Positions 46 through 27,437 of a DNA stretch of 34,175 nt are shown here, one piece after another. The stretch comes from Patescibacteria group bacterium (lineage in GTDB: Bacteria > Patescibacteriota > Gracilibacteria > JAPLVM01): positions 1-34,175 of the forward strand of contig JAPLVM010000044.1 in the NCBI GenBank assembly GCA_026397115.1. The letters are read 5' to 3'. Below the pieces are notes generated by a model that was not told where the DNA came from, made no database searches, and was given only the letters and a program-made list of their open reading frames with translations. A program made the position numbers and the translations under genes. Within the stretch, counting starts at the first letter, position 1; each line of letters starts with the position of its first letter.

Positions 46-741
46 TTAGGAGATTATGAACAGGCTCTTATGCAACAAGTTGGTGCAACCGATGCAATTC
101 GAACAGTCTACGCAGTTCAACAAAAAATATGAATTACGACATTGTTGGCAGTTTTGACTATAAAGCAAATTATAACAATCATGGCAGTTGATACATTCGT
201 AGCACAATTCGTCATCGCTCCCATAATATAAATCGATAGAGCTTCTTACTTTTCTTATTCCTCGACTATAAAAACTATCTTCATTATGCGAACTGTTAAA
301 AAGTAAATAACAGTTTTTATTCCAACCAGCCATGTTTGTGAAGTCGCTATTCTCGCTATTTTGATTAAATAAACCCTCAGCCGGAATCTGATCTAGAAGT
401 TCAACGAATTGCTCTGTGAATGAACGGCTAAAATTAAAGCTCATTGTAATTTCAGCACCATCCCATTTGTCGCTCCACCAACATTCATGACAATAAACAG
501 GACATCTTGAACCTGGTTGATAAGCAGTAACTACCTGTTTTTTGCATAAATCGCACGCTCTCTTATACAAATTTCTTTCATTCCGAAAAGCCGCCCTTCT
601 TTGTTTACGGCAATCTGGGCACAAAGTCGGGGCGGGAACCACAAACTTATGACTATTAAAAGTCGGTGAAACCCTGTCATAAAAAGATAGGTCTTGCGCC
701 GTAATTTCAAACTGCGATTGGCATTTGGGACAGGTGGACAT
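46..741 (-). CDS. Truncated (231 aa) paralogue of the Cys-rich zinc-ribbon protein family: N-terminal module plus first Cys block only. Possible gene remnant or pseudogene.
   Basis: Aligns with the first ~230 aa of the 561-565 aa neighbours (CPKCQSQFEIT..FYD..LCPDCR..FRNERNLYKR.CDLC..VYC.ECWWSDKWD). It stops at ..CTNLLHKSLFIIS* where full-length copies continue ..NL..K.YC..NE. I see no continuation in other frames in bases 1-45. Confidence 0.6.
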   Translation of the reverse strand: MSTCPKCQSQFEITAQDLSFYDRVSPTFNSHKFVVPAPTLCPDCRKQRRAAFRNERNLYKRACDLCKKQVVTAYQPGSRCPVYCHECWWSDKWDGAEITMSFNFSRSFTEQFVELLDQIPAEGLFNQNSENSDFTNMAGWNKNCYLLFNSSHNEDSFYSRGIRKVRSSIDLYYGSDDELCYECINCHDCYNLLYSQNCQQCRNSYFLLNCVDCSNCIGCTNLLHKSLFIIS

Positions 742-823
742 TGGAAATTTAAAATTTTGAATTTAGTAGAGACGCATTGCATGCGTCTCCTTATTTCGTA
801 TTTTGACGCGTCTTTGTATTGCA
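742..823 (+). repeat. Conserved intergenic element, copy 1: AATTTAGTAG, then the 9-bp-stem palindrome GAGACGCAT-TGC-ATGCGTCTC (769..789), then palindrome GACGCGTC (805..812)
   Basis: Near-identical to 2576..2650. It lies directly upstream of the start codon of the minus-strand gene at 46..741. Confidence 0.8.
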
Positions 824-847
824 TTTAATAAACAGGTAATCCCGCGC

Positions 848-872
848 AGGGAATGGTTTGAAACCATTCCCT
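848..872 (-). terminator. Hairpin 5 nt downstream of the stop of 878..2575 (AGGGAATGGTTT-G-AAACCATTCCCT)
   Basis: Perfect 12-nt inverted repeat read directly from the sequence. No clean U-tract follows on the minus strand, so intrinsic-terminator function is uncertain. Confidence 0.45.
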
Positions 873-877
873 ACCAT

Positions 878-2575
878 TTAATAAACCTTTTTTAGATAAC
901 ATGCTTCGCAATAGACCTTCTCATCACGATCTGGCGCATAAGAACTTTCGAAAACAAAGTCGCATCCTTCACTATCACATTTTCTCCTCCATAAACGATT
1001 CGGATTGCGCAACTTAATTCTATTCGCATGACGAATGTCAGGATGCAAATTCGGAATCGGTAAATTCATCTTCCGATAAAACTCCAGTTCTAATTTCTGA
1101 ATCACAAAAGGACGCTTTGTTTCAGCGCATTCAATCGCCCACTTCAAAATTTCATCTGGCACTTTCTTGATGTCATCTAAAATTGACAATTTACCAGCTG
1201 GAATAATTTTTTCTACCTTTGGAATTTCTATTTGAAGATCTCGCCACTGCCAGCCATTTTTCAAAACCTCACCTTTTTCAAGGGGAAAATATTCTTGCGC
1301 CGCAGTTTCATTGTAAACCGATGGCGATATATTTACTGGAAAAAACTCACCCCAAGATTTTTCTTTACGCATTTGCTCAATAATCTGAGGCACCAGTTGT
1401 TCATATTCTTCCTTGCTATATTGTTTATTTAAAATGCAATATTGGTTATGACGGAGGCCGATACTACCGAAAGAATTTCCCGCAGAAAAACAATTTTGGC
1501 AATAAAGAAAATCATGACAACCATTCCATGCTTGGGCACAAAATTGTAAATTAAAATCATCAATCCCAGCGTTTATGCTTTCATAAATAAGTTCAGCACC
1601 ACGCCCAGCTGTACTGCAATCCATACAAAATTTTGCGCCTCGCCAAACGTGTTCGCCATACCGGCATCCCTCAGCATCGTTGGCATGAAAACATCGATAG
1701 CAATCCTTTGCATTAAAGATATAATCTCCAATACAATTTTCACCATTTTCAATCTGAGCATACTTTTTAATCTGATGTTTATTAAAATCAGCAAACTTAG
1801 TTTTCAAATTACTAAGTTCTTTATAGCTACCAAAATTCAACTCAGCCATCTTCTTCTCGTACTCTTCCTTTTTCAACTGCTCATTCCACAAGCAATATTG
1901 CTTTTGACTAAGATTTGTGCAAAAGGCACAGTATGAACATCCAGCACAACTATTCAAAAACCAGGAGTTATCACAGTTACGACAATTTTGTAAAAATCCG
2001 CTGCCATAACAATTGCGACAATTCTCTAATTCATATCCAAGTTCACACTCATCAACATAATTACAATCAACTAAATCACGACATTGCTGTAGCCAATAGC
2101 CGTATAGACAATCCTCATTATTAGAACTTTCAAACACCAAATAACAATCTCTACAATCAGCAATCAAGCTACAAAAATCACAGTTTTCCGTATTTGCGCC
2201 CAGCATAGCCATTTTAGGAACCTTATTTTGCACCTCTGCAAACTGCTCGAAAAATGATTGATTCAAATCAAAATTTTTACCATGATCTAAAGCATTCCAT
2301 TTATCTGACCACCAACATTTCTGACAATAAACAGGAAACGCCGCATCTCTCGAAAATATGGATATAATATTTCTTTTGCATAAATCACAGGGTCTTTTGT
2401 ATAAATTTCGTTCATTTCGAAAAGCTAATCTCCTGTGTTGCCTGCATTCCGGACAAAGTGCAGGTTCTGAAATTTGGTATTTCTTGCCATTAAAAATTGG
2501 GGAAATTTTGTCGTAAAACAGTAAATCGTCTTGGGTGATTTCAAACTGTGATTGGCATTTGAGGCAGGTGGGCAT
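878..2575 (-). CDS. Cys-rich zinc-ribbon protein, array paralogue (565 aa), unknown function
   Basis: ATG-initiated 565-aa ORF with about 41 Cys by my count. Four N-terminal CxxC pairs, two central Cys-rich blocks and a C-terminal C..C/CxxC ribbon. No signal peptide or TM segment. Paralogous to 2687..4372, 5300..6979 and 6993..8690. Confidence 0.85.
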   Translation of the reverse strand: MPTCLKCQSQFEITQDDLLFYDKISPIFNGKKYQISEPALCPECRQHRRLAFRNERNLYKRPCDLCKRNIISIFSRDAAFPVYCQKCWWSDKWNALDHGKNFDLNQSFFEQFAEVQNKVPKMAMLGANTENCDFCSLIADCRDCYLVFESSNNEDCLYGYWLQQCRDLVDCNYVDECELGYELENCRNCYGSGFLQNCRNCDNSWFLNSCAGCSYCAFCTNLSQKQYCLWNEQLKKEEYEKKMAELNFGSYKELSNLKTKFADFNKHQIKKYAQIENGENCIGDYIFNAKDCYRCFHANDAEGCRYGEHVWRGAKFCMDCSTAGRGAELIYESINAGIDDFNLQFCAQAWNGCHDFLYCQNCFSAGNSFGSIGLRHNQYCILNKQYSKEEYEQLVPQIIEQMRKEKSWGEFFPVNISPSVYNETAAQEYFPLEKGEVLKNGWQWRDLQIEIPKVEKIIPAGKLSILDDIKKVPDEILKWAIECAETKRPFVIQKLELEFYRKMNLPIPNLHPDIRHANRIKLRNPNRLWRRKCDSEGCDFVFESSYAPDRDEKVYCEACYLKKVY

Positions 2576-2650
2576 TGGAAATTTTAAATTTTAAATTTAG
2601 TAGAGACGCATTGCATGCGTCTTTATATTTCGACGCGTCTTTGTATTGCA
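2576..2650 (+). repeat. Conserved intergenic element, copy 2: AATTTAGTAG, then palindrome AGACGCAT-TGC-ATGCGTCT (2604..2622), then GACGCGTC (2632..2639)
   Basis: Aligns with 742..823 with only a few substitutions and one small indel. It lies directly upstream of the start codon of 878..2575. Confidence 0.8.
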
Positions 2651-2655
2651 ACGCT

Positions 2656-2675
2656 GGGCCAAAAATTTTTGGCCC
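2656..2675 (-). terminator. Hairpin GGGCCAAAAATTTTTGGCCC, 12 nt downstream of the stop of 2687..4372
   Basis: Perfect 20-nt palindrome with a GC clamp and an A/T-rich centre. Confidence 0.45.
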
Positions 2676-2686
2676 GTACGTGATAA

Positions 2687-4372
2687 TTAATATACAGCCT
2701 CAAGATAGCATTTTTCACAATAGACAGTTTCAGGTCTGTCCGGAGAATAGGATGTCTGAATAGGAATATTACATTTATTACAGGTTCTGTTCCAGAGTTT
2801 TCTAGGATTACGAAGAGATAATCTGTCTTTGTGTCTTTGATCAGGATGTCTTTTAGGAAGAGGAAGATTATGCTTTCTATAAAAGTCTAATTCTTGTTTG
2901 ATTATTCTAAATGGTTTATGTGTTATTTCACATTCAATTGCCCAATCAAGAATTTGATCTGGTATTTCTGAAATAATATCTGGTAATTTATCGGCTTTAA
3001 CTATCTTTTCTACTTTAGGAAAAGGAGCTTCATAATCACTCCAGTTGAATCCTTGTTCTTGCGCTTGCTTTTTCGTAAGAGGAAAGTATTCCTGAGCTAC
3101 TGTTTCATTGTAACCAAAAGGACTGAGGCTTGGGTGAAAAAATTCTCCCCATTCTTTAGTTTTCATCATATGCTCAATTATCCTTGGCACCAATTCTTCG
3201 TATTCTTGCTTAGAATACTGTTTGTTCAAAATACAGTACTGTTTATGGCGAAGACCGATTGAGGCAAAAACATCATGGCAGCTGCGGCACCATGAAGAAT
3301 AATAAATGTTTGCACATTCATTAAAAGTGCAATCGCAACAAATAATGCGATAAGCGCCATCGCCGCAAGCCTGACATTCATACACAAGCTCTGCTCCTGT
3401 GCCGCCCCATGCGTCAACATCATAACAATCTTTGTAATTATATCCATCGTAAACAAAAGCGCAGCTTTGGCTGTTTTTTACGTTAAAACAATTCTTTAGA
3501 TCCTTTGATTTATTGAGATAATCCCCAAAGCAGTTTTCGGTTTGCATCCCATTCATATACTTCTTCGGTAAAATGTGTGAATGACCTTCCAAAGCACCTT
3601 TTGCTATGTTAATTTGCAGAGACAGGTCAAGCGTAAAATTGTTTATCTTTTGCAAATATTCGTCTTTTGAACATTTCTCATTAAAGAAATAGTATTGCTT
3701 ATTACGTAAATTCACGCACCCGAAACAGAACGAACAATTAATACAATCGCGAAGGAACCATGCGTTTGAGCATCCTTGGCAATTATATGTGAAGCTACAG
3801 TTATAACAATCGATTAAATTATCACATTCATAGCACAATTCACATTTATCGATATGACAGCAGTCTACGCAATTACGATTGTGGTAGGAATGACTTAGAT
3901 AAAGGCAATCTTGATTATGGTCAGCTTCGAAAATGAGATAACAATTTTTATTTCTAGCCGAGAAATTCACATAATCGGAATTTTCATTAAAATCATTTTG
4001 CAGGGATGGATGGGGAACCGTCTCATTGAAATCTTTAAACTGTTCAAAAAATGGCCGGCTAAAATCAAAGTCACGACCTTTTTCGATCGGATCCCATTGA
4101 TCCGATAAATAAAATTTTTGCGTGTATATAGGTATAGTTTTGTCCGGTGAATAAATTGATAAAATTTTCTCGTCTGTTGCATCGTCTTTTCTCCAATATA
4201 ATTTGCGTTCATTTCTAAATGATAGCCGTCTTTTCTGCCTGCATTCTGGACAAAGTGTAGGCTCTTGAACTTGGTATTTCTTGCCATTAAAAACTGGAGA
4301 GATCTTGTCGTAGAATAATAAATCCTCCGGCGTGACTTCAAACTGCGATTGGCATTGCGTGCAAAAATTCAT
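2687..4372 (-). CDS. Cys-rich zinc-ribbon protein, array paralogue (561 aa), unknown function
   Basis: 561-aa ORF with the same architecture. The C-terminal ~190 aa are very similar to the other copies (YCILNKQYSKQEYEELVP.II..M.K.KEWGEFF...SP.GYNETVAQEYFPL ... WAIEC..T.KPFRIIKQELDFYRKHNLPLPKRHPDQR). Confidence 0.85.
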   Translation of the reverse strand: MNFCTQCQSQFEVTPEDLLFYDKISPVFNGKKYQVQEPTLCPECRQKRRLSFRNERKLYWRKDDATDEKILSIYSPDKTIPIYTQKFYLSDQWDPIEKGRDFDFSRPFFEQFKDFNETVPHPSLQNDFNENSDYVNFSARNKNCYLIFEADHNQDCLYLSHSYHNRNCVDCCHIDKCELCYECDNLIDCYNCSFTYNCQGCSNAWFLRDCINCSFCFGCVNLRNKQYYFFNEKCSKDEYLQKINNFTLDLSLQINIAKGALEGHSHILPKKYMNGMQTENCFGDYLNKSKDLKNCFNVKNSQSCAFVYDGYNYKDCYDVDAWGGTGAELVYECQACGDGAYRIICCDCTFNECANIYYSSWCRSCHDVFASIGLRHKQYCILNKQYSKQEYEELVPRIIEHMMKTKEWGEFFHPSLSPFGYNETVAQEYFPLTKKQAQEQGFNWSDYEAPFPKVEKIVKADKLPDIISEIPDQILDWAIECEITHKPFRIIKQELDFYRKHNLPLPKRHPDQRHKDRLSLRNPRKLWNRTCNKCNIPIQTSYSPDRPETVYCEKCYLEAVY

Positions 4373-4479
4373 GATTTGTTTTAAAACAATTATAAATTAA
4401 ATTATATCTACTTGCTACATTGACACCAAATTTGAACTACGGCTGGTCGTTATAGATAAAAAGCTTCGCATAGATTAAT

Positions 4480-5235
4480 TTAATTTCTTATCAGATAAAA
4501 CACATAACTATAATATTCATAATATTTCTTAAATATGTCGATTTCTCTTTGCACCGAGGAAATGCATTTCAGAGCCTCATCATTGCCCAAATATTTTTGC
4601 TCCAATATTTTTAATCGCTTTTCAATTGGAAAATAGTATTCATCAGCCCATGTATTTGGAGGAAGGATTATTTTATCTATCAGATTATATCCTTCTTGTT
4701 CGATTTCTTTTACATAATCTCGTATATGTAAAACTTCATTTCCCGTCTCGTATCTCCAATAATCACGTAGTTTCTTCGGCGGATTCTCCTTTATCCAGGC
4801 AATATGCGAAAATGCAATGCATGAATCATTTTTTAGATATTTTCTCCAAGATCTTAAACCGTTCTCTATACCAATTATAAAAATGGAACCCTCGGCCCAA
4901 ATAACATCAAAGGCCAAGGCACTATATGGCAAGTCAAACATAGAAACATTTTCAACCTTTATCTTCTTTCCCAAATGATTTTTATCGATCTTCACCGATA
5001 ATTCATCCAGAAAAGGCTGATGCGTATCAATTGATGTAATCTTCACGTTATCGAACTCCGCTAATTTCATTGATTGTCTCCCAGGACCACAACCAATATC
5101 TAAAATATTATAAAAATCTTTTTTGGTGGCTGTTTTGATAATATTAAAAACCTTTTCAGTATAAAAATCGCTTCCCGGTCCTTGTCTTGGTAGGCTTTGG
5201 TGAATTTCCCAAAAAATTTTTCCCTTATCTGCCAT
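4480..5235 (-). CDS. Class I SAM-dependent methyltransferase (251 aa)
   Basis: Motif I ILDIGCGPGRQS, followed by an acidic residue at the end of beta-2 (ITSIDT) and motif post-I/II spacing typical of Methyltransf_11/25-like enzymes. Substrate cannot be told from the sequence. Confidence 0.8.
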   Translation of the reverse strand: MADKGKIFWEIHQSLPRQGPGSDFYTEKVFNIIKTATKKDFYNILDIGCGPGRQSMKLAEFDNVKITSIDTHQPFLDELSVKIDKNHLGKKIKVENVSMFDLPYSALAFDVIWAEGSIFIIGIENGLRSWRKYLKNDSCIAFSHIAWIKENPPKKLRDYWRYETGNEVLHIRDYVKEIEQEGYNLIDKIILPPNTWADEYYFPIEKRLKILEQKYLGNDEALKCISSVQREIDIFKKYYEYYSYVFYLIRN

Positions 5236-5299
5236 TTTTATTAAAAGAATTAAAGGTGATATATTGTAATCTGTTGACTAAAAAAAATGTCTAAAACGC

Positions 5300-6979
5300 C
5301 TAATAAATCTCCTCTTGATAACACTTCTCGCAATAAATTTTACGCTGGCCTCTTTTATATACAGTTTGAACTGGCTGTCCGCACTTTGAACACGCAATCT
5401 CCTGCAAATCTTTAAACTCTAGTATCTTAGACTTTTCCTTAATCCTTTCAAATGGCGATACACGAGGAATTGGCAAATTATTCTGCCTATAATAATCTAA
5501 TTCTTGCTTAATAATACGATATTTTTTGCCACTCACAGTACACTTTAAAACAGCTTGTAAAATGTCGTCTTGCACATCACGAATATGATCAGGAATCTGA
5601 TAGATCGAGGCGAACGATTCAACTTCATCATCTTTCCAGTCTAGACCTCTAGCTAATACTTCCTCCTTAGCTAAAGGAAAAAAATCTTGCGCTTCACTTT
5701 GATTGTAATAAAAAGGAACAAAAGATGCTGGAAAAAATTGACCCCATTCACAGGCTTGTCCCGCGTAATCTTGATGAAGCGGGGTCTTTTTCATATGGCT
5801 AATAATACGTTGTCGCAGATCAGAATATTCAACCGGATTATATTGCTTATTAAAAATACAGTATTCTTTCTTTTTAAGACCACAACACCCAAAACAGTTG
5901 CTACAACCTAAGCAAGCAAACATGCAATATTCCAGATTATTCGGATTCGGAAAACACTCTGCTGAAAATTTGGTGTTATAACCATTAGTTCCAACGCTAC
6001 TGCAATTGTATATAAGCTCCGAGACATTCCCAAAAGCAAAATAAAATAAACAACTTTTCGCTTCGTTAATATTAATGCAATATTCCATATCCTCGGCGCT
6101 ATTTACCATAAAACAATTTTGAGCATTTTTAGTATTATTCAAAAAATTACCACTGGAGTTTTCATTATTTTTACCTTGTAAATGTTTCACTGCTAGGCTC
6201 TCTTTGACCGACGCCCACTTAGCTTGCTCAGAAACCAAAACCTTGTAGCTACCGATATCTATCTCGCTCATCCTTTTCTTATAATCATCCTTGCTCAACT
6301 GTTGATTGTAAAAACAATACTCCTTTTTATACAAATTCGCGCATCCAAAACAATCATTGCAGCCTTGGCAGTTGTAAAGAAAATAAGAATCCGCACAATC
6401 ATGACAATATTCAGAAAACTTCAAATTATGACAACCTTTGATACTGGCACACTCATAACACAATTCTGAATCATAAGCTGAAATGCAATCAATTAAATTT
6501 TTGACTCTATAAATAATTTTGCAAAACATACAATCTTCGCCATCCACGCCACCAAAAACAAGATAGCAATTACGCTGTTGCGACACACCATTACAATAAT
6601 CACTATTTTCTAAAGTATGCTTCTGCACGCTTAGATTTGGCCAAGGCATTTCCCTGAGCATATCTGCAAACTGTTCAAAAAATGGCCTATTAAAATCAAA
6701 ATCGCGACCATATTCTAAACCATCCCAAACATCAGAATTCCAAATATCAACCTCATAAACTTTCAAATTCTTCTCTGGAGGTATGTAGCTTAAAATCGGT
6801 TTTTTCGAATAATCACAAATTGAATTATAAAGATACTGCCTATTGCGAAACAAACATAAAATTCTCATCCGTTCATTCGGATGAATAGTGGGCATAGGCA
6901 AATCATTATCAGCACAGTATTTTTTCTCCGCCTCGGAAACAACGAAAGTCTTACCAGTCTGTCTACATATCTGTTGCAT
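5300..6979 (-). CDS. Cys-rich zinc-ribbon protein, divergent array paralogue (559 aa from the ATG at 6979)
   Basis: The ORF track runs 5300..7075, but that start overlaps the upstream gene by 83 nt. The ATG at 6979 (MQQICRQTGK..) lies 13 nt after the upstream stop (6993). Central and C-terminal regions are homologous to the other copies. The N-terminus lacks the first CxxC. Confidence 0.8.
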   Translation of the reverse strand: MQQICRQTGKTFVVSEAEKKYCADNDLPMPTIHPNERMRILCLFRNRQYLYNSICDYSKKPILSYIPPEKNLKVYEVDIWNSDVWDGLEYGRDFDFNRPFFEQFADMLREMPWPNLSVQKHTLENSDYCNGVSQQRNCYLVFGGVDGEDCMFCKIIYRVKNLIDCISAYDSELCYECASIKGCHNLKFSEYCHDCADSYFLYNCQGCNDCFGCANLYKKEYCFYNQQLSKDDYKKRMSEIDIGSYKVLVSEQAKWASVKESLAVKHLQGKNNENSSGNFLNNTKNAQNCFMVNSAEDMEYCININEAKSCLFYFAFGNVSELIYNCSSVGTNGYNTKFSAECFPNPNNLEYCMFACLGCSNCFGCCGLKKKEYCIFNKQYNPVEYSDLRQRIISHMKKTPLHQDYAGQACEWGQFFPASFVPFYYNQSEAQDFFPLAKEEVLARGLDWKDDEVESFASIYQIPDHIRDVQDDILQAVLKCTVSGKKYRIIKQELDYYRQNNLPIPRVSPFERIKEKSKILEFKDLQEIACSKCGQPVQTVYKRGQRKIYCEKCYQEEIY

Positions 6980-6992
6980 AGCTGATTTATAA

Positions 6993-8690
6993 TTAAAAAA
7001 CTGTCTTCTGATAACACTCCTCGCAATAAATCTTTTCTGGACGGTCAGGTGCAAACGGCGTTTCAAACTCAACACTACAGCCGAGGTTAGCGCAGGAACG
7101 GTGCCACAAACGCAAAGGATTAAGCTGTTTTAATCGCATTTCATATCGCAAATCAGGATGCAATCGAGGAAGGGGCAATCCAGCGCGACGGTAAAATGCC
7201 AGCTCGGCTTTTTGAATGATAAATGGCCTCTTGGTTTCCGCGCACTCAATCGCCCAATTCAAAATTTCATCAGGCACCTCTGAAATTGAAATTGGTAATT
7301 TGGAAGCTGGAATAATTTTTGCTACTTTTGGAATTTCAATTTTCTCATCAAGCCATTCAAATCCATGTTGAACCGCTTTTTCTTTTGTTATGGGAAAATG
7401 ATCATAGGCAATACTTTCATTATAAGCAAATGGCGAAATGCTAGAAGGAAAAAATTTTGCCCATTCACCTGTCTTTTCCATGTGTGAAATAATCTTTGCA
7501 ATCAGTTCACTGTATTCCTGTTTAGAATATTTTTTATTAAAAATGCAGTATTCTTGATGATTGTTCAGGCCATGGCATCCAAAGCAATTTTTAACATTCA
7601 TACAACTTTGACAATAAATCAGATTCTCGCACGCCCAAGATCGATGAGTAAAAAGACAAGAATAAGTGTCATTACCTATTTCACCGCAGTTATAAGCAAG
7701 ATTGATATTTGATCCCCACACAGATACATCCTGGCAGTCTTTGATACCATATTTGAGCCAAGCACAATATTTGCAATCTTCAGCGTCTTTCACAATAAAA
7801 GACTGGCTGCAATTCTTGCAATTTTCAAGCATATTACCCACCGACGCCTCACAGCTCAAAATATTCGCATATTTATGCGGAACCGAAAGATATATCTCAT
7901 AAGCTCTTTTTTTTGTATCTTCTATCGATGACGGCGTAAAGAAAAAATCTCTTAATCTATGTTCATATTCAGCGCGAGTTAATTTTTCATTAAACCAATA
8001 ATACTCTTTATTTCGAAGCTCACTACAACCAAAACAATTTGAACAACCATAACAGTAATGACAAAAATGACAGTTATTACAATCCTTCAAACTACGAGAG
8101 AAAAATGAATAATAGCAATTTATACCATCAACACATTCATAGCATAATTCCGCATGGTCTATATCTCGACAGTCAAAGCAATCACGCGAATACCACAATC
8201 CAGTGCAATACATGCAACACTCGCTTCCAGCAGCGTTAAAACACAGGTAACAGTTTTTTAGGCTATTACACCCATTGCAATATTCAGAATTTTCCATGCC
8301 CATAGTATCAACAAACGCGTGCGGATGAGGAACTTCGAGAGCCATTTCTCGAAATTGCTCAAAAAATTGCCTATTAAAATCAAAGTCACGACCCTGCCTC
8401 AATGGATCGTAATATTTGTCATCATGCCAAGCACTTATATGGTACACAGGAAATTTCACATCAGGCCTATGAGCTGAAATTATTGTTCTGCCTGTCGCAT
8501 CACACTTTCGTTTATAAATTTTACGAATATTACGAAAAGAAAGTCTGTGTATCAACCGACATTCTGGGCACATTTCCGGCTCAGGAATCGCAAATTTCTG
8601 ACCATTAAAAATTGGCGCAACTTTATCATGAAAAACACGATCTTCAGGGGCAACTTCAAACTGCGATTTACACTTTAAACAAGTTTTCAT
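6993..8690 (-). CDS. Cys-rich zinc-ribbon protein, array paralogue (565 aa), unknown function
   Basis: 565-aa ORF with N-terminus MKTCLKCKSQFEV.PED..F.DK..PIFNG.K...PEP..CPECR. The C-terminus WAIECAETKRPFIIQKAELAFYRRAGLPLPRLHPDLR is near-identical in pattern to 878..2575. Confidence 0.85.
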   Translation of the reverse strand: MKTCLKCKSQFEVAPEDRVFHDKVAPIFNGQKFAIPEPEMCPECRLIHRLSFRNIRKIYKRKCDATGRTIISAHRPDVKFPVYHISAWHDDKYYDPLRQGRDFDFNRQFFEQFREMALEVPHPHAFVDTMGMENSEYCNGCNSLKNCYLCFNAAGSECCMYCTGLWYSRDCFDCRDIDHAELCYECVDGINCYYSFFSRSLKDCNNCHFCHYCYGCSNCFGCSELRNKEYYWFNEKLTRAEYEHRLRDFFFTPSSIEDTKKRAYEIYLSVPHKYANILSCEASVGNMLENCKNCSQSFIVKDAEDCKYCAWLKYGIKDCQDVSVWGSNINLAYNCGEIGNDTYSCLFTHRSWACENLIYCQSCMNVKNCFGCHGLNNHQEYCIFNKKYSKQEYSELIAKIISHMEKTGEWAKFFPSSISPFAYNESIAYDHFPITKEKAVQHGFEWLDEKIEIPKVAKIIPASKLPISISEVPDEILNWAIECAETKRPFIIQKAELAFYRRAGLPLPRLHPDLRYEMRLKQLNPLRLWHRSCANLGCSVEFETPFAPDRPEKIYCEECYQKTVF

Positions 8691-9376: not shown

Positions 9377-9414
9377 AAAAGTCGTAAAAAAATAATCATT
9401 ATAAAATTTTGAAA

Positions 9415-11115
9415 ATGCTGAAAGACCAGATAATTAAACTGCTCATCAAAAAAAATATTATTACGGAAACCGAATCCTCTCATATCAGCGATGAGGGGCT
9501 GGAAGAATTTATGGTGAGAAGAGCAAATGACCTTAAAAAAATCCCCAAAACAATACCCAAAGAGCAAGCAGAAAAAATAAGAAGGATGCTTAGTTTAGAC
9601 TCACGCGAGAACAAAAAAGACAGGCCAGAAACAAGAAAGAAGGAAATCGAAAAAATCATACTGGAAATGCGCTCATACCTGAAACAATTTCAAACTAAAT
9701 GTCCTGAAGTAATCGGGATGATCCTTCTTGGAAGCAGAATTAATCCAAATAAAATTCCTTCTAAAAACAGCGATATTGATACAGTATTAATCCTGAAAGA
9801 AGGGTTCGAAGCAACTTCAAAAACAAGGGACGGACAGGCAATGGTTTGGAAATTAAGATCTTTTTCAGATAGCCTACTCACTGATTCTGGCTTGCAAGTT
9901 GAATTGGACGAATTCTACACAGCTGATAGATTTTTCGAAAAGCTAGATTCTAACGAGGATAAGAGCAAACTAATATGGGGCTGGCACCCAAAAGCAATAA
10001 GGTATATAGGAAGCAATATTGATGGAATGAATGAGGCTCAAGTCCAAACTCGCATTTTGCAAGCGCTGAACTCAAAAAAAATGCGAACGCTCAGAGAAGA
10101 AGTCATTACCAAAGCCAAAAAAACCATCTCAAAATATCTCTGTATGAAAAAAAATCATTCTACAAATAAACCCGCAAAAGAGCAGATCAATAAACCAAAA
10201 ATCATCACCTCTTACATTAACCCTGATTTGGACGCAGTGGCTTGCATCTTTGCCTATCAAGAATTTCTAACAAAAACTGGTTCTAAAGTAAAAATATGGC
10301 TAAATGGCAAACCACGCGACGAAGCCAAATTCATCATCAAAAAGTTTCATCTAAAACTCCCGAAATCAATAAAAAATCCAGCAAAAATTAATGAATTTAT
10401 CCTAGCTGATGCGAGCGACATACGCGGCATAGATCCAAAAATTCAGCTAAAACAAGTTATAGAAATCATCGACCACCGCGAAGTCCAAGACGCGCACCTC
10501 TTTCCAAATGCAAAAATACAAATCGAAAAAGTCGGCGCCGCAGCCACGCTGATCGCTGAGAAATTTTATGAAAAACGAATTACCCCATCAAAAGAATCTG
10601 CGATTTTACTTTATTCAGCCGTAATTTCAAATACATTAAATTTTCAGGCAAAGGTGGCTACTGATCGCGATCTTAAAATGTCAAAATGGCTTAAAAGCTG
10701 CGTGGAAATATCAGATTCCCTGCCCGAAGAAATGTTTGCCGCAAAATCTAATTTGAATGGCGAAAACTTAAAAGCTCGATTTCATCAAGAATTTGCATGG
10801 TTTGATCTTGCGAGTAAAAAGATCGGGATCGTTCAACTCGAAATTATAAATGGCGAAAAGCTCATTCTTGAGCGACATGCTGAGCTGATAGGAAATCTAA
10901 ATAATATTATAAAAAATTATCGTCTTGATTTCGGATTTGTAACAATAGTTGATCTAAACCACGGATGTAATTGGTTCATGACGGAAAACGCTAATATGCA
11001 AAAAATCCTGCATGAAATTTTCAAGATTAAATTTGAAAATAATGTCGCCGTAAAAAACAGCCTAATCATGAGGAAAGAGCTCGTCCCGCTAATCAAGAAA
11101 TATTTGGAGCAATAA
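9415..11115 (+). CDS. Fusion protein: N-terminal minimal nucleotidyltransferase-fold domain plus C-terminal DHH/DHHA2 domain (family II inorganic pyrophosphatase-like)
   Basis: NTase signature LLGS-x12-DID (nt ~9724-9790). The C-terminal ~300 aa align with family II PPase along their whole length (YINPDLDAVACIFAY; ILADASD; IIDHRE; KVGAAATLI; LYSAVISNTLNF; MRKELVP). The ORF track starts at TTG 9409; the first ATG is at 9415. Confidence 0.75.
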   Translation: MLKDQIIKLLIKKNIITETESSHISDEGLEEFMVRRANDLKKIPKTIPKEQAEKIRRMLSLDSRENKKDRPETRKKEIEKIILEMRSYLKQFQTKCPEVIGMILLGSRINPNKIPSKNSDIDTVLILKEGFEATSKTRDGQAMVWKLRSFSDSLLTDSGLQVELDEFYTADRFFEKLDSNEDKSKLIWGWHPKAIRYIGSNIDGMNEAQVQTRILQALNSKKMRTLREEVITKAKKTISKYLCMKKNHSTNKPAKEQINKPKIITSYINPDLDAVACIFAYQEFLTKTGSKVKIWLNGKPRDEAKFIIKKFHLKLPKSIKNPAKINEFILADASDIRGIDPKIQLKQVIEIIDHREVQDAHLFPNAKIQIEKVGAAATLIAEKFYEKRITPSKESAILLYSAVISNTLNFQAKVATDRDLKMSKWLKSCVEISDSLPEEMFAAKSNLNGENLKARFHQEFAWFDLASKKIGIVQLEIINGEKLILERHAELIGNLNNIIKNYRLDFGFVTIVDLNHGCNWFMTENANMQKILHEIFKIKFENNVAVKNSLIMRKELVPLIKKYLEQ

Positions 11116-11202: not shown

Positions 11203-11934
11203 ATGTACGACCCAGAAAAACATCACCGTCGATCAATTCGACTAAAAAATTATGACTACTCGCAAAATGGCGCGTATTCAATAACCATCTGCGCGCAGAA
11301 CCGCGAGCATTTCTTTGGAGAAATTATTAATGAAAAAATGATTCTAAATGATGCGGGAATAATGGTGAATGCGCAATGGAATGATCTAATAAATAGATTC
11401 AGCAATATTCATTTGGATCAATATATTTTGATGCCAAATCATTTTCATTGCATTCTAATTATTAATGATCAAAATGATTCGAGGCAGGCACAAGAGCCTG
11501 CCCCAACGATAATCAATCCTAGGCAGCCAGATTCAGGGCAGGCACAAGGGCTTGATTTTGATTCAGGGCAGCCACGAGGGCTTGCCCCAACGATAATCGA
11601 GGCAAGTACGGATACCCCTCGTGGGTATCCGTATCCGCATCCGCAGCCATCAAATTTCGGAAATTCTGGGCGGCCACAAAGGCCTGCCCCAACGATAATC
11701 GAGGCCCCCACAAAGAAAACCATCGGCGATATAATCGGAGCATTCAAATCAATTACCACGAACGAATATATCAACGGCGTGAAAAATAAAGGCTGGAAAA
11801 CATTCAATAAAAGATTATGGCAACGAAACTACTACGAACACATCATTCGCAACGAAAATGAATTACACAGAATCCGTGAATATATCATCAATAATCCGCG
11901 TAACTGGGGACGTAATAAAAAATCTAGGAAATAA
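11203..11934 (+). mobile_element. IS200/IS605-type Y1 (HUH) transposase, RAYT-like, 243 aa, with a low-complexity in-frame insert
   Basis: HUH motif MPNHFHCILII and a catalytic-Tyr helix region WQRNYYEHIIRNENELHRIREYIINNPRNW. The N-terminus HHRRSIRLKNYDYSQNGAYSITICAQNREHFFG is typical of REP-associated tyrosine transposases. Confidence 0.85.
11473..11715 (+). repeat. Cluster of GC-rich hairpin repeats inside the transposase ORF
   Basis: GGCAGGC-ACAAGA-GCCTGCC at 11483..11502. Direct repeat GATTCAGGGCAG(G/C)CAC(A/G)AGGGCTTG occurs twice (about 11530-11585). Perfect hairpin ACGGATACCC-CTCGT-GGGTATCCGT at 11608..11632. GGGCGGCCACAAAGGCCTGCCCC near 11668-11690. The tail GCCCCAACGATAATC occurs three times. 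Confidence 0.8.
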
Positions 11935-24173: not shown

Positions 24174-27100
24174 ATGGCCGATAAATTCAACCTCATCTCC
24201 AATAACAAACCTACTGGCGACCAACCGCAAGCAATTATTAAACTTACCGAAGGCATTGACTCAAAAACTCACGACCAATTGCTGCTAGGAGTAACCGGCT
24301 CCGGCAAAACTTTTACCATGGCCAATGTAATCAATCATGTACAGAAACCAACTCTAGTCATGGCTCATAACAAAACACTTGCCGCCCAGCTCGCCAGCGA
24401 ATTTCGTGAACTTTTTCCAGAAAACGCAGTTGATTATTTTGTTTCATACTACGATTATTACCAGCCAGAAGCATATATTGCCAAAAGCGATACCTACATT
24501 GAGAAAGAAACCACTATCAACGAAGAAATAGATAAATATCGCCACAAAGCTACTTATGATCTTTTAACCCGCCAGGATGTAATTGTCGTAGCCTCAGTTT
24601 CGGCAATATACGGACTTGGATCACCAGAAGATTATATTGGTCTAGCCGTTACTGTGAGCAAAGGACAGAATATAGCTCGTGATGATTTTTTGCGTTCGCT
24701 GATCGCCATCCAATACCGCCGTGATGATTTTAAATTTTCTCGCGGAGCATTTCGTGTCCGAGGTGATATAGTCGAGGTTTTTCCGCCTATGTCTGATTCT
24801 GCTTTCAGACTTGAATTTTGGGGCAATGAAATAGAAAAAATCCAAGAAACCGATCATCTAACAGGACAAATTTTGAATGACGTGAAGCAAATTCTTTTCA
24901 TTCCTGCTAAACACGCCATTACCTCAGAAGAACGCATCGCTGAAATATTGCCAAAAATAAGGGAGGAAATGGATCTGCGCACAGCCGAGCTTAAAGCCAA
25001 TGGCAAAATCGTCGAAGCGCAAAGACTCATGCAAAGAACAATGTATGACATGGACATGCTTAAAGAAACTGGCTATGTAAATGGCATTGAAAACTATACA
25101 CGCTATTTAACCGGCGTCATGCCTGGTCAGCCGCCTTATACTTTACTTGATTTCTTTCCAAAAAAACCAGATGGCACTCGCGATTTCCTGCTTTTCATAG
25201 ATGAGTCACACATGACCGTGCCGCAGATCGGTGCCATGCATGAAGGTAATCTCTCCCGCAAACGCCAACTTGTCGAATACGGCTTCCGGTTGCCATCATC
25301 TTACGACAACAGGCCACTGACCTGGAAAGAATTTGAAGAGCGCATGCCACAAACCATTTATGTGAGCGCTACTCCGGGACACTATGAACTTTCAAAATGC
25401 GGGGTAAAAGGAGACTTATATGAATGGTTGAAAAATAATGAGTATTCTGAAAATGCCAATGATAAACTCACCAATCAGTGGTTTGTAATTAGGCACGGCG
25501 AGGCTGACCATAATATCACTAAAACTTATGTTAATGATATAAATAAAGATAATTCTCATTTAACCAAAAAAGGTATTAGGCAAGCCAAGGAATCAATTAA
25601 AGAATTAAAAAGGCTTGGCATAACTAAAATGTTTGCTTCAGACTTTATCCGTACTCGTGAAACAGCTGAAATTGTATCTGCTGGATTAGAACTGGAAACT
25701 ATTTTTGATCCACGGATTAGAGAAATCTTTCGCGGCGACTGGGAAGGAACGGTTTATGATCCACCTCCGCGAGACTGGGACAAGTGGGCCGAAAATATAG
25801 ATTTTGCCGAAACGGGTGAAACGCAAAAACAGGTACGCCGAAGAATGAAAGATTTTATCTTAGAAAAGAACCAGGAATTATCTGGAGAAAAAATATTGCT
25901 TGTATCACACAGCGGCTCCATGAAATGCTTGCTTTCAGAATTGCAGGATAAATCTTATCCGAAGAAGATACATGATGAAATGCGTAACTGCGAGATACAA
26001 AATTTTTCATCTATCGTTGACAGCTATTTGAATTCGTCAAATCAAAAGCCAAAAGTCATTATCCTGCACGGAGCGCCAACAAAAGATCGAAGCAATGAGC
26101 CAAATTATGTTCCAGATAATGTTCGCCATTGGCTCGGCTGGCTTAAAGAAAATCTTGAACAAAATGGATTTTCTGTCACAAATCCACAAATGCCTATTCC
26201 ATGGCAACCCGAATATGAAAATTGGAAAAAGGAAATCGAAAAACTGGATATTGACGAAAATACTACTTTGGTTGGAACAAGCGCTGGCGGTACATTTTGG
26301 GTCAGATGGTTAGGCGAAACTAAAAAACGGGTTAAGAACCTGTTTTTAATTGCCCCATCAAAAATAAAGTGGGAAGAACGTCATTATCTTAATGATTTTG
26401 TTAATTTTGAAATTGATCCAGAAATAAAAAATCGCGTTGAAAACATAATAATTTTTGTATCAAACGATAGCCCAGGTATCATTCAAAGTTGTAAAATTTA
26501 CAAAAAAGCACTTTTAGCCAAACTCATTAAACTCGAAAATCGCGGACATTTCACTGCCTTCAATAACCCTGAAAACAAAAAATTCCCTGAACTCCTAAAA
26601 GAAATTCTACATTATACTAAAGACCTGAAACGAAAAAAAATAGAGTTAGGCAATAAAAATAATGATCAAGAAACACCTAGAATAATCCAACAAATTATTA
26701 GACCTACCGGACTTCTTGACCCAGAAATCTCTATTCATCCAATTGATGGACAAATCGACCATTTACTTGAAAAAATTCGCCTACGAATTAAGGCAGGTGA
26801 AAGAACACTTATTACAACTCTTACCAAAAAAACATCTGAAAAGCTTACTGACTTTCTGCGAGAAAATGGATTTAAAGTTGAATATCTACACAGTGAAGTT
26901 GAAACCCTAGACAGAATTAAAATACTCCGCGATCTTCGCCTCGGTGAAATTGACATAATCGTTGGAATAAACCTACTCCGCGAAGGAATTGATCTACCTG
27001 AAGTTTCACTCGTTGCCATTCTCGACGCTGACAAAGCCGGATTCCTGCGTTCGCGCGATGCGCTCCTTCAAACCATAGGCAGAACCGCCAGAAACGTAAA

Positions 27101-27437
27101 CGGACAAGTCATAATGTATGCCAACATAATTACACCTGCTATGCGCCAAGCCATTGACGAAACCAACCGCCGTCGCAAAATGCAAGCCGCATATAATGAA
27201 AAACATCACATCACTCCAACAACGATTATCAAAAAGATCGCTGATCTTGAATTTAAAAAGGCCGAGGGCCTCAAGAGAGAAAAACGGAAGAAAGAGGAAT
27301 ACTTTACATATCTCGACGACGATGGAAAACAGAAATATATTGGGGAGTTGGAGCGTCAAATGGATCTTGCCGTGCAAAATATGGAGTTTGAAAAAGCTGC
27401 TGAGCTCAGAGACGAGATTGCAGAGCTTATGAAGTAA
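24174..27437 (+). CDS. uvrB: Excinuclease ABC subunit B (UvrB) with a ~424-aa two-domain insertion (1087 aa in total)
   Basis: N-terminal part: [42 protein letters not shown]. C-terminal part: [70 protein letters not shown], and a UVR motif at the end. Confidence 0.93.
   Translation: [1087 protein letters not shown]
25404..26675 (+). other. In-frame insertion within uvrB: histidine-phosphatase (PGAM-like) domain (~25476..26009) plus alpha/beta serine-hydrolase domain (~26049..26618)
   Basis: PGAM-like domain: RHGEADHN (RHG at 25491), [22 protein letters not shown]. Hydrolase domain: [14 protein letters not shown], GxSxG nucleophile elbow GTSAGG (26274), late D (FVSNDSP) and GHF. The flanking residues YELSKCG and [15 protein letters not shown] are contiguous in ordinary UvrB. 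Confidence 0.8.

Follow-up and report, generated by a model that had tools for sequence, protein, structure and literature searches.

A UvrB that carries a histidine phosphatase and a serine hydrolase in its interdomain linker: probable capture of a two-enzyme cassette in a Patescibacteria group bacterium

How does a gene for the repair protein UvrB come to encode two further enzymes in the middle of its reading frame? The question is raised by the stretch of DNA analyzed here (the window), which is the entire contig JAPLVM010000044.1, 34,175 nucleotides long, of an NCBI metagenome-assembled genome (MAG) labeled "Patescibacteria group bacterium." A first-pass annotation made from the sequence alone had described a 1087-amino-acid (aa) UvrB interrupted in frame by two enzymes, and this description is confirmed by the UvrB equivalog score, by alignment to structures in the Protein Data Bank (PDB), and by Pfam. 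We consider it probable that the uvrB gene recently captured, in a single event, two enzymes in one cassette that has no promoter and makes use of the expression of UvrB, and that the process is a recurrent one in ultra-small symbionts.

We first consider the host gene. The 1087-aa frame is unbroken over 3.3 kb, and its translation exceeds the cutoffs of two UvrB equivalog models, NCBIfam NF003673 (954.8 bits; cutoff, 743), which matches over aa 4 to 409 and ~834 to 1087, and TIGR00631 (935.1 bits; cutoff, 750.1). UvrB structures align at ~60% identity on both sides of the interruption with no residue lost: residues 3 to 406 of the query correspond to residues 3 to 401 of the 9gy7 chain and residues 834 to 1087 to residues 404 to 657, and the same two-sided result was obtained with the B. 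caldotenax structures 2fdc and 1d9z. The N-terminal part holds helicase domain 1a/1b, with Walker A (GSGKT), the beta-hairpin (YYDYYQPEAY), the DESH box, and motif III (SATPG), together with the UvrA-interaction domain 2 (Pfam UvrB_inter); Helicase_C, UvrB, and UVR were also found by Pfam in the host parts. In an alignment of 35 UvrBs, the columns G39-K45, Y92-Y101, D343-H346, S398-T400, and Q966-R973 are invariant, the window protein included, and an AlphaFold2 (AF2) model built with this alignment is confident for both UvrB parts (predicted local distance difference test [pLDDT] mostly 80 to 93). We note that the public annotation of the protein (P0154) is only "histidine phosphatase family protein" [Patescibacteria group bacterium]; a genome survey by public name would score this organism as lacking UvrB.

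Between the two parts of UvrB lie two domains of ordinary enzyme families. The first matches His_Phos_1 (PF00300) with an E value of 1.7e-34 (119.6 bits; cutoff, 21.7), and its RHG motif, Asn, Arg (IRTRETA), Glu (IREIFRGDWEG), and His (VSHSG) align to those of PhoE (1h2e/1ebb). None of the specific histidine phosphatase equivalogs of NCBIfam reached its cutoff (score/cutoff: CobC, 90.4/162.9; GpmB, 74.4/261; PspA, 64.7/350; SixA, 25.4/74.5). The second matches Ser_hydrolase (PF06821) over aa 650 to 795 with an E value of 2.5e-12 (47.5 bits; cutoff, 22), with an envelope of aa 625 to 815 in the hidden Markov model (HMM) of the family; its GTSAGG, SNDSP, and RGHF align to GHSSG, STDDP, and CGHF of RBBP9 (the Ser75/Asp/His triad) and to YdeN. 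Against an HMM built from free-standing members only, the nested hydrolase scores 223.5 bits, compared to 93 to 324 bits for free-standing representatives. All the phosphatase and hydrolase motifs quoted in the first-pass annotation are present in the translation, and both domain assignments are significant. With these catalytic residues kept, both guest enzymes look active. The hydrolase thus resembles YdeN (1uxo) and RBBP9 (2qs9) in family and in the positions of the triad, but it scores only ~25 to 30 bits against those structures and belongs to a Patescibacteria/DPANN subfamily with the motifs HWxxWL, WxPxYxxWK, and FPELL and a link to leuS.

The interruption falls 2 to 3 residues past SATPGxYEL (helicase motif III), in the linker between RecA-like domains 1a and 3, which together make up the ATP site at their interface, across which single-stranded DNA passes (PMC3458569). 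Alignment with UvrB orthologues and structures, as had been proposed, mapped the site to this 1a-3 linker and found it empty in the closest UvrB, P0155. This comparison covered the best 120 of 8000 scored UvrB hits, among which the window protein is the only insert carrier. P0155 is 75% identical, uninterrupted, and 675 aa long, and the UvrB parts of the window protein are 72 to 76% identical to it. The two share a linker extension (YELAKTGVEGDLFTFLKNKK in P0155 and YELSKCGVKGDLYEWLKNNE in the window), and the other close relatives (64 to 61% identity; Gracilibacteria, Peregrinibacteria, and others) carry neither the insert nor the extension. Because P0155 has the extension but no insert, the true insertion comprises 408 codons and not 424. 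The earlier boundaries (25404 to 26675, ~424 aa) therefore stand as to the insertion itself, but their N-terminal edge was ~12 residues too early, as P0155 shares the first ~12 to 15 residues. Removal of the cassette leaves 679 aa, rather than the 663 aa previously counted, compared to 675 aa in P0155, and the result fits the empty site to within one residue. The filled site reads WLKNN-E(408 codons)DQE, with junctions KNN/EYS and NKNN/DQE; an equivalent placement of the cassette is 25431 to 26654. A separate small insertion was seen at 25149 to 25166 (UvrB aa 326 to 331), where the window reads FFPKKPDGTRDFLL, most relatives FFPxDFLL, and P0155 the shorter FFPKKDWLL.

Table 1. Coordinates of the interrupted uvrB gene and its parts in the window
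Feature	Position	Strand	Basis or remark
Complete uvrB open reading frame (ORF), 1087 aa	24174..27437	+	100% identical to NCBI MAG protein P0154
UvrB N-terminal part, aa 1-407	24174..25394	+	Pfam, PDB alignment, invariant columns, AF2 pLDDT ~80-93
Lineage-specific linker extension (KCGVKGDLYEWLKNN-E), common to P0155	25395..25441	+	Ends in repeat copy 1
Direct-repeat copy 1, AAAAATAATGA	25431-25441	+	Perfect 11 nt
Inserted cassette, 1224 nt = 408 codons	25442..26665	+	Repeat copy 1 counted as native, copy 2 as insert end
Histidine phosphatase domain, His_Phos_1 PF00300, aa 437-609	25482..26000	+	Pfam, PhoE alignment
Inter-domain linker, aa 610-624	26001..26045	+	
YdeN/RBBP9-type alpha/beta serine hydrolase, PF06821, aa 625-815	26046..26618	+	Pfam, family HMM, PDB alignment
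Lys/Asn-rich C-terminal cassette linker	26619..26665	+	Ends in repeat copy 2
Direct-repeat copy 2, AAAAATAATGA	26655-26665	+	In frame with copy 1
UvrB C-terminal part: helicase domain 3 (motifs IV-VI, QTIGRTAR) and UVR (UvrC-binding) domain	26666..27437	+	

The segment absent from P0155 is bracketed exactly by the 11-nt direct repeat, whose copies are spaced by 1224 nt and both read K-N-N-E/D. We estimated the chance of a repeat of at least 11 nt in four ways, obtaining P values of 0.0009 for random window pairs in the gene or contig, 0.002 for shuffles that keep local composition, 0.005 when the same geometry was slid along the locus, and 0.002 when it was slid along the contig. Where the phosphatase adjoins the hydrolase within the cassette, no repeat pair was found, a result that agrees with joint entry of both domains as one unit. 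As a candidate target-site duplication, the 11-nt repeat is a single case in an A-rich coding linker; the cassette codes for the two hydrolases and no transposase, no inverted repeats pair its ends, and a transposon reading was rejected. The GC content of the insert is 0.359 (GC3, 0.306), below that of the UvrB flanks (0.429 and 0.415) and inside the range of the contig's other genes (0.33 to 0.44), and its synonymous codons match the usage of the contig no less closely than those of the flanks do. The earlier statement that base composition resembles the rest of the gene is thus borne out for codon usage, measured against the contig, but not for GC. A foreign origin of the insert by composition was rejected on account of the native-like codon usage and the GC within the contig range; there is no mark of recent import from a compositionally different genome. 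A filled and an empty site at 75% identity, with the flanking repeat intact, amount to a rare snapshot of a domain insertion being made.

Taken together, these data suggest the following course of events. The uvrB gene would have acquired a 1224-bp cassette lacking a promoter, probably all at once and fairly recently, and with it, in frame in a surface linker, a branch-1 histidine phosphatase and, after it, a YdeN/RBBP9-type serine hydrolase. The 11-nt in-frame repeat suggests integration by microhomology, either of a circle at a short match or by template switching during replication. The product would be a single 1087-aa polypeptide, made at full length and with both parts active, in which a complete UvrB core still performs nucleotide excision repair and the two enzymes project from the hinge on linkers rich in Lys and Asn, as passengers that use the transcription and translation signals of UvrB. 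Their chemistry is likely to be general house-cleaning of phospho-esters and of aminoacyl or ester-amide compounds, independent of repair. In Patescibacteria, also known as the Candidate Phyla Radiation (CPR), and in DPANN archaea, the hydrolase genes are normally free-standing and tightly abut housekeeping genes, most often leuS. Such small genes may rely on the expression signals of their neighbors and may have relocated repeatedly over evolutionary time, the persisting copies being those that came to lie between genes or in permissive linkers, such as the CP1 hinges of LeuRS and IleRS, the GD1-GD2 linker of Der, and the 1a-3 linker of UvrB.

The same domains were also found nested in other hosts. 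An HMMER search with the insert over 1.84 billion cluster representatives returned 9094 matches, many of them long proteins with one domain embedded and none with the phosphatase-then-hydrolase arrangement. The window protein itself was not returned, and nested proteins may therefore hide in clusters of ordinary homologues (50% identity), so that representative-based censuses undercount them; a word-indexed search with the insert gave 4 matches, again without the self match, and its counts are lower bounds. A metagenome scan found no close relative of the two-domain cassette. We also scanned one genome per GTDB species, which gave 12 loci, and a second metagenome scan, with the hydrolase profile, added 2. 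In 9 of the 12 genome loci PF06821 is nested in LeuRS. Overall, it occurs in LeuRS at two sites, before and after the CP1 editing domain; among the hosts are Falkowbacteria, Kerfeldbacteria, Parcubacteria, Saccharibacteria, other Patescibacteria, a "Bdellovibrionales" MAG, and a Woesearchaeota archaeon. Pfam scans showed the same domain nested in IleRS-type synthetases, in the Der/EngA GTPase (between the G domains), and in a GT2 glycosyltransferase. The survey proposed in the first-pass annotation for related insertions or free-standing copies thus yielded both for the hydrolase, as well as nested His_Phos in IleRS.

The closest long relatives of the window His_Phos_1 are all IleRS-type synthetases, with 1, 2, or 4 copies. 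Guests are also combined: one IleRS (P0105) carries Ser_hydrolase and His_Phos, another (P0060) NUDIX and His_Phos, and the heaviest host seen, a 1378-aa LeuRS of an unclassified MAG (L006, 2739 to 6872), carries Ser_hydrolase, the editing domain, NUDIX, and a further Ser_hydrolase. Two of these loci have labels or gene structures that call for comment. The nested LeuRS of L005 (CAZKWX010000001.1, labeled uncultured Bdellovibrionales) is nearly identical to that of P0001; L005 is the sole locus among the 12 with a named label outside CPR and DPANN (L006 is labeled only "bacterium") and is possibly a mis-binned Patescibacteria contig. At L001 (2677 to 5825), the nested LeuRS appears as two ORFs of 635 and 410 aa with an 8-nt gap, the break lying just past the nested domain and a NUDIX gene following directly; this could be a frameshift, an assembly error, or a truly split LeuRS.

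Two further UvrBs carry the hydrolase, both without the phosphatase. In P0006, it occupies the same loop as in the window, without the linker extension, and in L009 it lies ~20 residues downstream of the window's site, after IIRPTGLIDPEVEIRP. The earlier proposal of a stable insertion at the hinge between the RecA-like lobes agrees with these two proteins, nested in the same region, and with the intact motifs of the window UvrB, and the insertion does appear to be a stable one. A rough neighbor-joining tree built from 103 hydrolase domains mixes nested with free-standing copies; no two UvrB-hosted copies formed an exclusive clade in any of 200 bootstraps, and the nearest neighbor of the P0006 domain was LeuRS-hosted in 192 of 200. 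From the different sites and the lack of monophyly, it follows that UvrB was invaded independently at least two times, and probably three. Of interest to protein engineers, insertions of 190 to 410 aa are tolerated in nature at two places in UvrB, the hinge just past motif III and a position ~20 residues farther on. We note that L009 (JAGVXH010000004.1), labeled Candidatus Pacearchaeota archaeon, encodes a bacterial-type UvrB of 880 aa, which could reflect lateral transfer of uvrB to the archaeon or an issue of binning or labeling.

The free-standing relatives of the hydrolase were examined along with their neighbors. A profile search gave 3130 proteins at an E value of ≤1e-20; almost all of the best 120 are stand-alone genes of ~190 aa, and the source names, where present, are Patescibacteria and Nanoarchaeota. 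At six of eight distinct free-standing sites, the hydrolase gene abuts or overlaps a same-strand neighbor: it follows LeuRS with a gap of 2 nt (L017), precedes LeuRS with an overlap of 8 nt (L010), ends an overlapping series of M24 peptidase, HIT, and hydrolase genes with a free His_Phos_1 gene close by (L019/L020), lies between PNPOx and CDC48, abutting the former (L022/L023), follows an unknown ORF, with an AlaRS gene 5 nt away on the opposite strand (L024/L025), or separates RtcB from Archease, with 2 nt of gap and 4 nt of overlap (L026/L027; L026, 3608 to 5983). The genes rtcB and archease form a pair that normally functions together. At one of the remaining sites (L021), the hydrolase gene is ~175 to 200 nt from its neighbors, among NUDIX and PEP-utilizer genes, and at L014 no close partner was evident in the ORF list. 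LeuRS is thus a habitual partner of the hydrolase, adjacent on either side or as a host at two sites. RBBP9, the only family member to have been characterized, is a serine aminopeptidase whose substrates must bear a free alpha-amine (PMC8866121), and by analogy an enzyme of this chemistry might hydrolyze aminoacyl esters or aminoacyl-nucleotides. The recurrent embedding and the adjacency to leuS may reflect either an unrecognized partnership (e.g., clean-up of aminoacyl esters or aminoacyl-nucleotides on LeuRS) or else a distinctive way in which genomes poor in promoters capture genes. An ORF with LAGLIDADG was also observed just upstream of rtcB at L026.

These distributions bear on whether the insert is instead an accessory specific to repair, in which the phosphatase would trim 3′-phosphates or other blocked ends, the hydrolase would remove adducts, or the insert would gate the ATPase allosterically. 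The insert lies in the linker that joins the two ATPase lobes, both enzymes look active from their residues, the hydrolase occurs in UvrB of at least two and probably three lineages, and the mycobacterial RNase HI/CobC-type acid phosphatase model of NCBIfam (NF005567), which likewise joins a branch-1 histidine phosphatase to a nucleic-acid enzyme, is matched weakly. With 63.3 bits (cutoff, 326), the window phosphatase domain is not a member, and NF005567 describes an end-to-end fusion whereas the window phosphatase is nested. LeuRS and IleRS are much commoner hosts of nested domains from these families, and Der and GT2 host them too; free-standing copies adjoin translation and tRNA genes rather than repair genes; the nearest UvrB does without the insert, as do the rest of the best 120 hits; and the other two insert-bearing UvrBs lack the phosphatase. 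We therefore regard a repair-specific accessory as unlikely, and the role in end processing or regulation tentatively raised in the first-pass annotation is not favored, given how regularly these families occur in frame inside LeuRS, IleRS, Der, and a glycosyltransferase.

Several observations weigh against a recent capture as we propose it. No comparable repeat was found at the 11 other nested loci tested, which fits their greater age and gives no independent support, and the 11-nt repeat is a single case located in A-rich linkers that code for Lys and Asn. (A 10/11 repeat flanking the LeuRS insert of L001 was set aside as uninformative, since it includes the domain's own conserved FPEL motif.) In the searches described above, neither a donor of the cassette nor another protein with the phosphatase-then-hydrolase order was found, and with no second cassette known, single-event entry depends on the 11-nt repeat. 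The AF2 model has pLDDT values of <50 in the insert region, where the alignment has no depth. The hinge is mechanically important, with ATP bound at the 1a/3 interface (PMC3458569), and the insertion may affect UvrB activity. The link to LeuRS suggests a translation-linked function of the hydrolase, in which case the copy in UvrB would be either a functionless hitch-hiker or a second use.

The direction of change might also be the reverse, with the direct repeats having served to delete an old cassette precisely from the P0155 lineage. Precise deletions are favored by short direct repeats, the insert has entirely native-like codon usage, and P0155 keeps the unusual linker extension that houses the insert in the window. 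On the other hand, the other close relatives at 64 to 61% identity have neither insert nor extension, a perfect 11-nt repeat is unlikely to last in a fast-evolving linker, and the repeat sequence is not kept at the P0155 site. A loss of this kind consequently seems to us quite improbable, and we infer that the cassette was gained.

A different doubt concerns the host, which might be a crippled UvrB, a decaying relic that serves only to express two hydrolases. The NCBI name mentions the histidine phosphatase only, the insertion is in a mechanically sensitive hinge, and no uvrA or uvrC was found among the genes of the 34-kb window. This reading is very unlikely in view of the identity to P0155 (72 to 76%) and to the PDB UvrBs (~60%), the invariant catalytic and DNA-binding motifs, the equivalog score well over its cutoff, and a frame intact across 3.3 kb.

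Among the alternatives weighed here, only the repair accessory and the loss from the P0155 lineage carry any appreciable probability, and the remaining explanations are more improbable still than a crippled UvrB. A chimeric assembly that joined uvrB to unrelated hydrolase genes would agree with the occurrence of the exact protein on a single metagenome contig and with the lack of a second cassette copy in our searches, but we consider it scarcely credible: both junctions lie in the same surface loop with the frame exactly restored, the excised sequence fits the empty site of a relative within one residue, codon usage matches the contig, and independent assemblies show like nesting in UvrB (P0006 and L009) and in LeuRS. 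An intein-like or otherwise excised element, removed from protein or RNA to leave a ~75-kDa UvrB with the junction peptide EWLKNNDQETPR, is in our judgment extremely unlikely, for although the insert is in frame in an essential, conserved gene and its last residue is Asn, it has no N-terminal Cys, Ser, or Thr, no penultimate His, and an Asp after the junction; Intein_splicing, Hint, and LAGLIDADG gave no Pfam match at an E value of ≤0.1, in agreement with the earlier statement that intein blocks are absent; Rfam gave no intron match, only a sub-threshold snoRNA chance match (23.8 bits versus 50; E value, 0.75); and the site is a variable linker, not a conserved active-site motif, filled with ordinary enzymes whose catalytic residues are kept.

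Capture of a cassette by uvrB may be compared with known systems. Domain insertion as such is common, and aminoacyl-tRNA synthetases are preferred hosts and compact domains preferred guests (PMC13114784; see also PMC2995079). As with the LeuRS CP1 editing domain and the E. coli GyrB insert, an autonomous domain interrupts its host and stays in the mature protein, but the guests in the window are two unrelated generic enzymes that are abundant as free-standing proteins and recur in several hosts and sites. Like inteins, the insert is in frame in an essential gene and sporadic among relatives, being present in the window and missing from the 75%-identical P0155; unlike inteins, it has no Hint fold, splicing residues, or homing endonuclease, occupies a variable linker, and is presumably not excised.

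Rickettsia palindromic elements are short, non-enzymatic, in-frame insertions in housekeeping genes that form repeat families at the DNA level. The guests described here are likewise in frame in housekeeping genes and tolerated at the surface, but they are enzymes of 190 to 200 aa with 40 to 55% mutual identity, and no DNA-level repeat family was detected among them. In a literature search that covered sources other than most subscription journals, we found no paper on UvrB-nested enzymes, including the combination of UvrB with His_Phos_1 and PF06821, and none on PF06821, His_Phos, or NUDIX nested in CPR or DPANN synthetases or on a leuS-hydrolase linkage; the host-guest combination in UvrB was thus not found described.

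More speculatively, PF06821, the branch-1 phosphatase, and NUDIX might together make up, in Patescibacteria and DPANN archaea, a guild of "nesting" genes that lack promoters. Its members would move by microhomology-mediated integration between or into housekeeping genes, survive only where they are translationally coupled or in frame in a linker, and act as enzymes inside their hosts; the window UvrB would be the youngest example, with its scar intact. We put this forward tentatively, as an idea that is doubtful at present. If it is true, the guild would occupy the same genomic niche as inteins, without splicing.

Elsewhere on the contig, the minus strand from 46 to 8690 carries a tandem array of Cys-rich paralogues, with ORFs at 46 to 741, 878 to 2575, 2687 to 4372, 5300 to 7075, and 6993 to 8690, that is, four copies of ~560 to 590 aa and one truncated copy of 231 aa. 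They have a zinc-ribbon-like N-terminal start (CxxC...CPxC) and the C-terminal motif KPFxIxKxELxFYRKxxLPxPxxHPxxR, and the one copy scanned (878 to 2572) gave no Pfam match. On the plus strand, a DHH/DHHA2 phosphoesterase gene (9409 to 11115) has its domains from aa ~265 onward, after an N-terminal region of ~260 aa without a Pfam match. It is followed by a gene for an IS200-like Y1 transposase (11203 to 11934, plus strand), in which Y1_Tnp matches aa 165 to 231 only. The transposase is seemingly split in frame by a Pro/Gln/Gly-rich stretch of ~75 aa in which APTIIxxP occurs three times, and it is thus another apparent in-frame insertion on the same contig.

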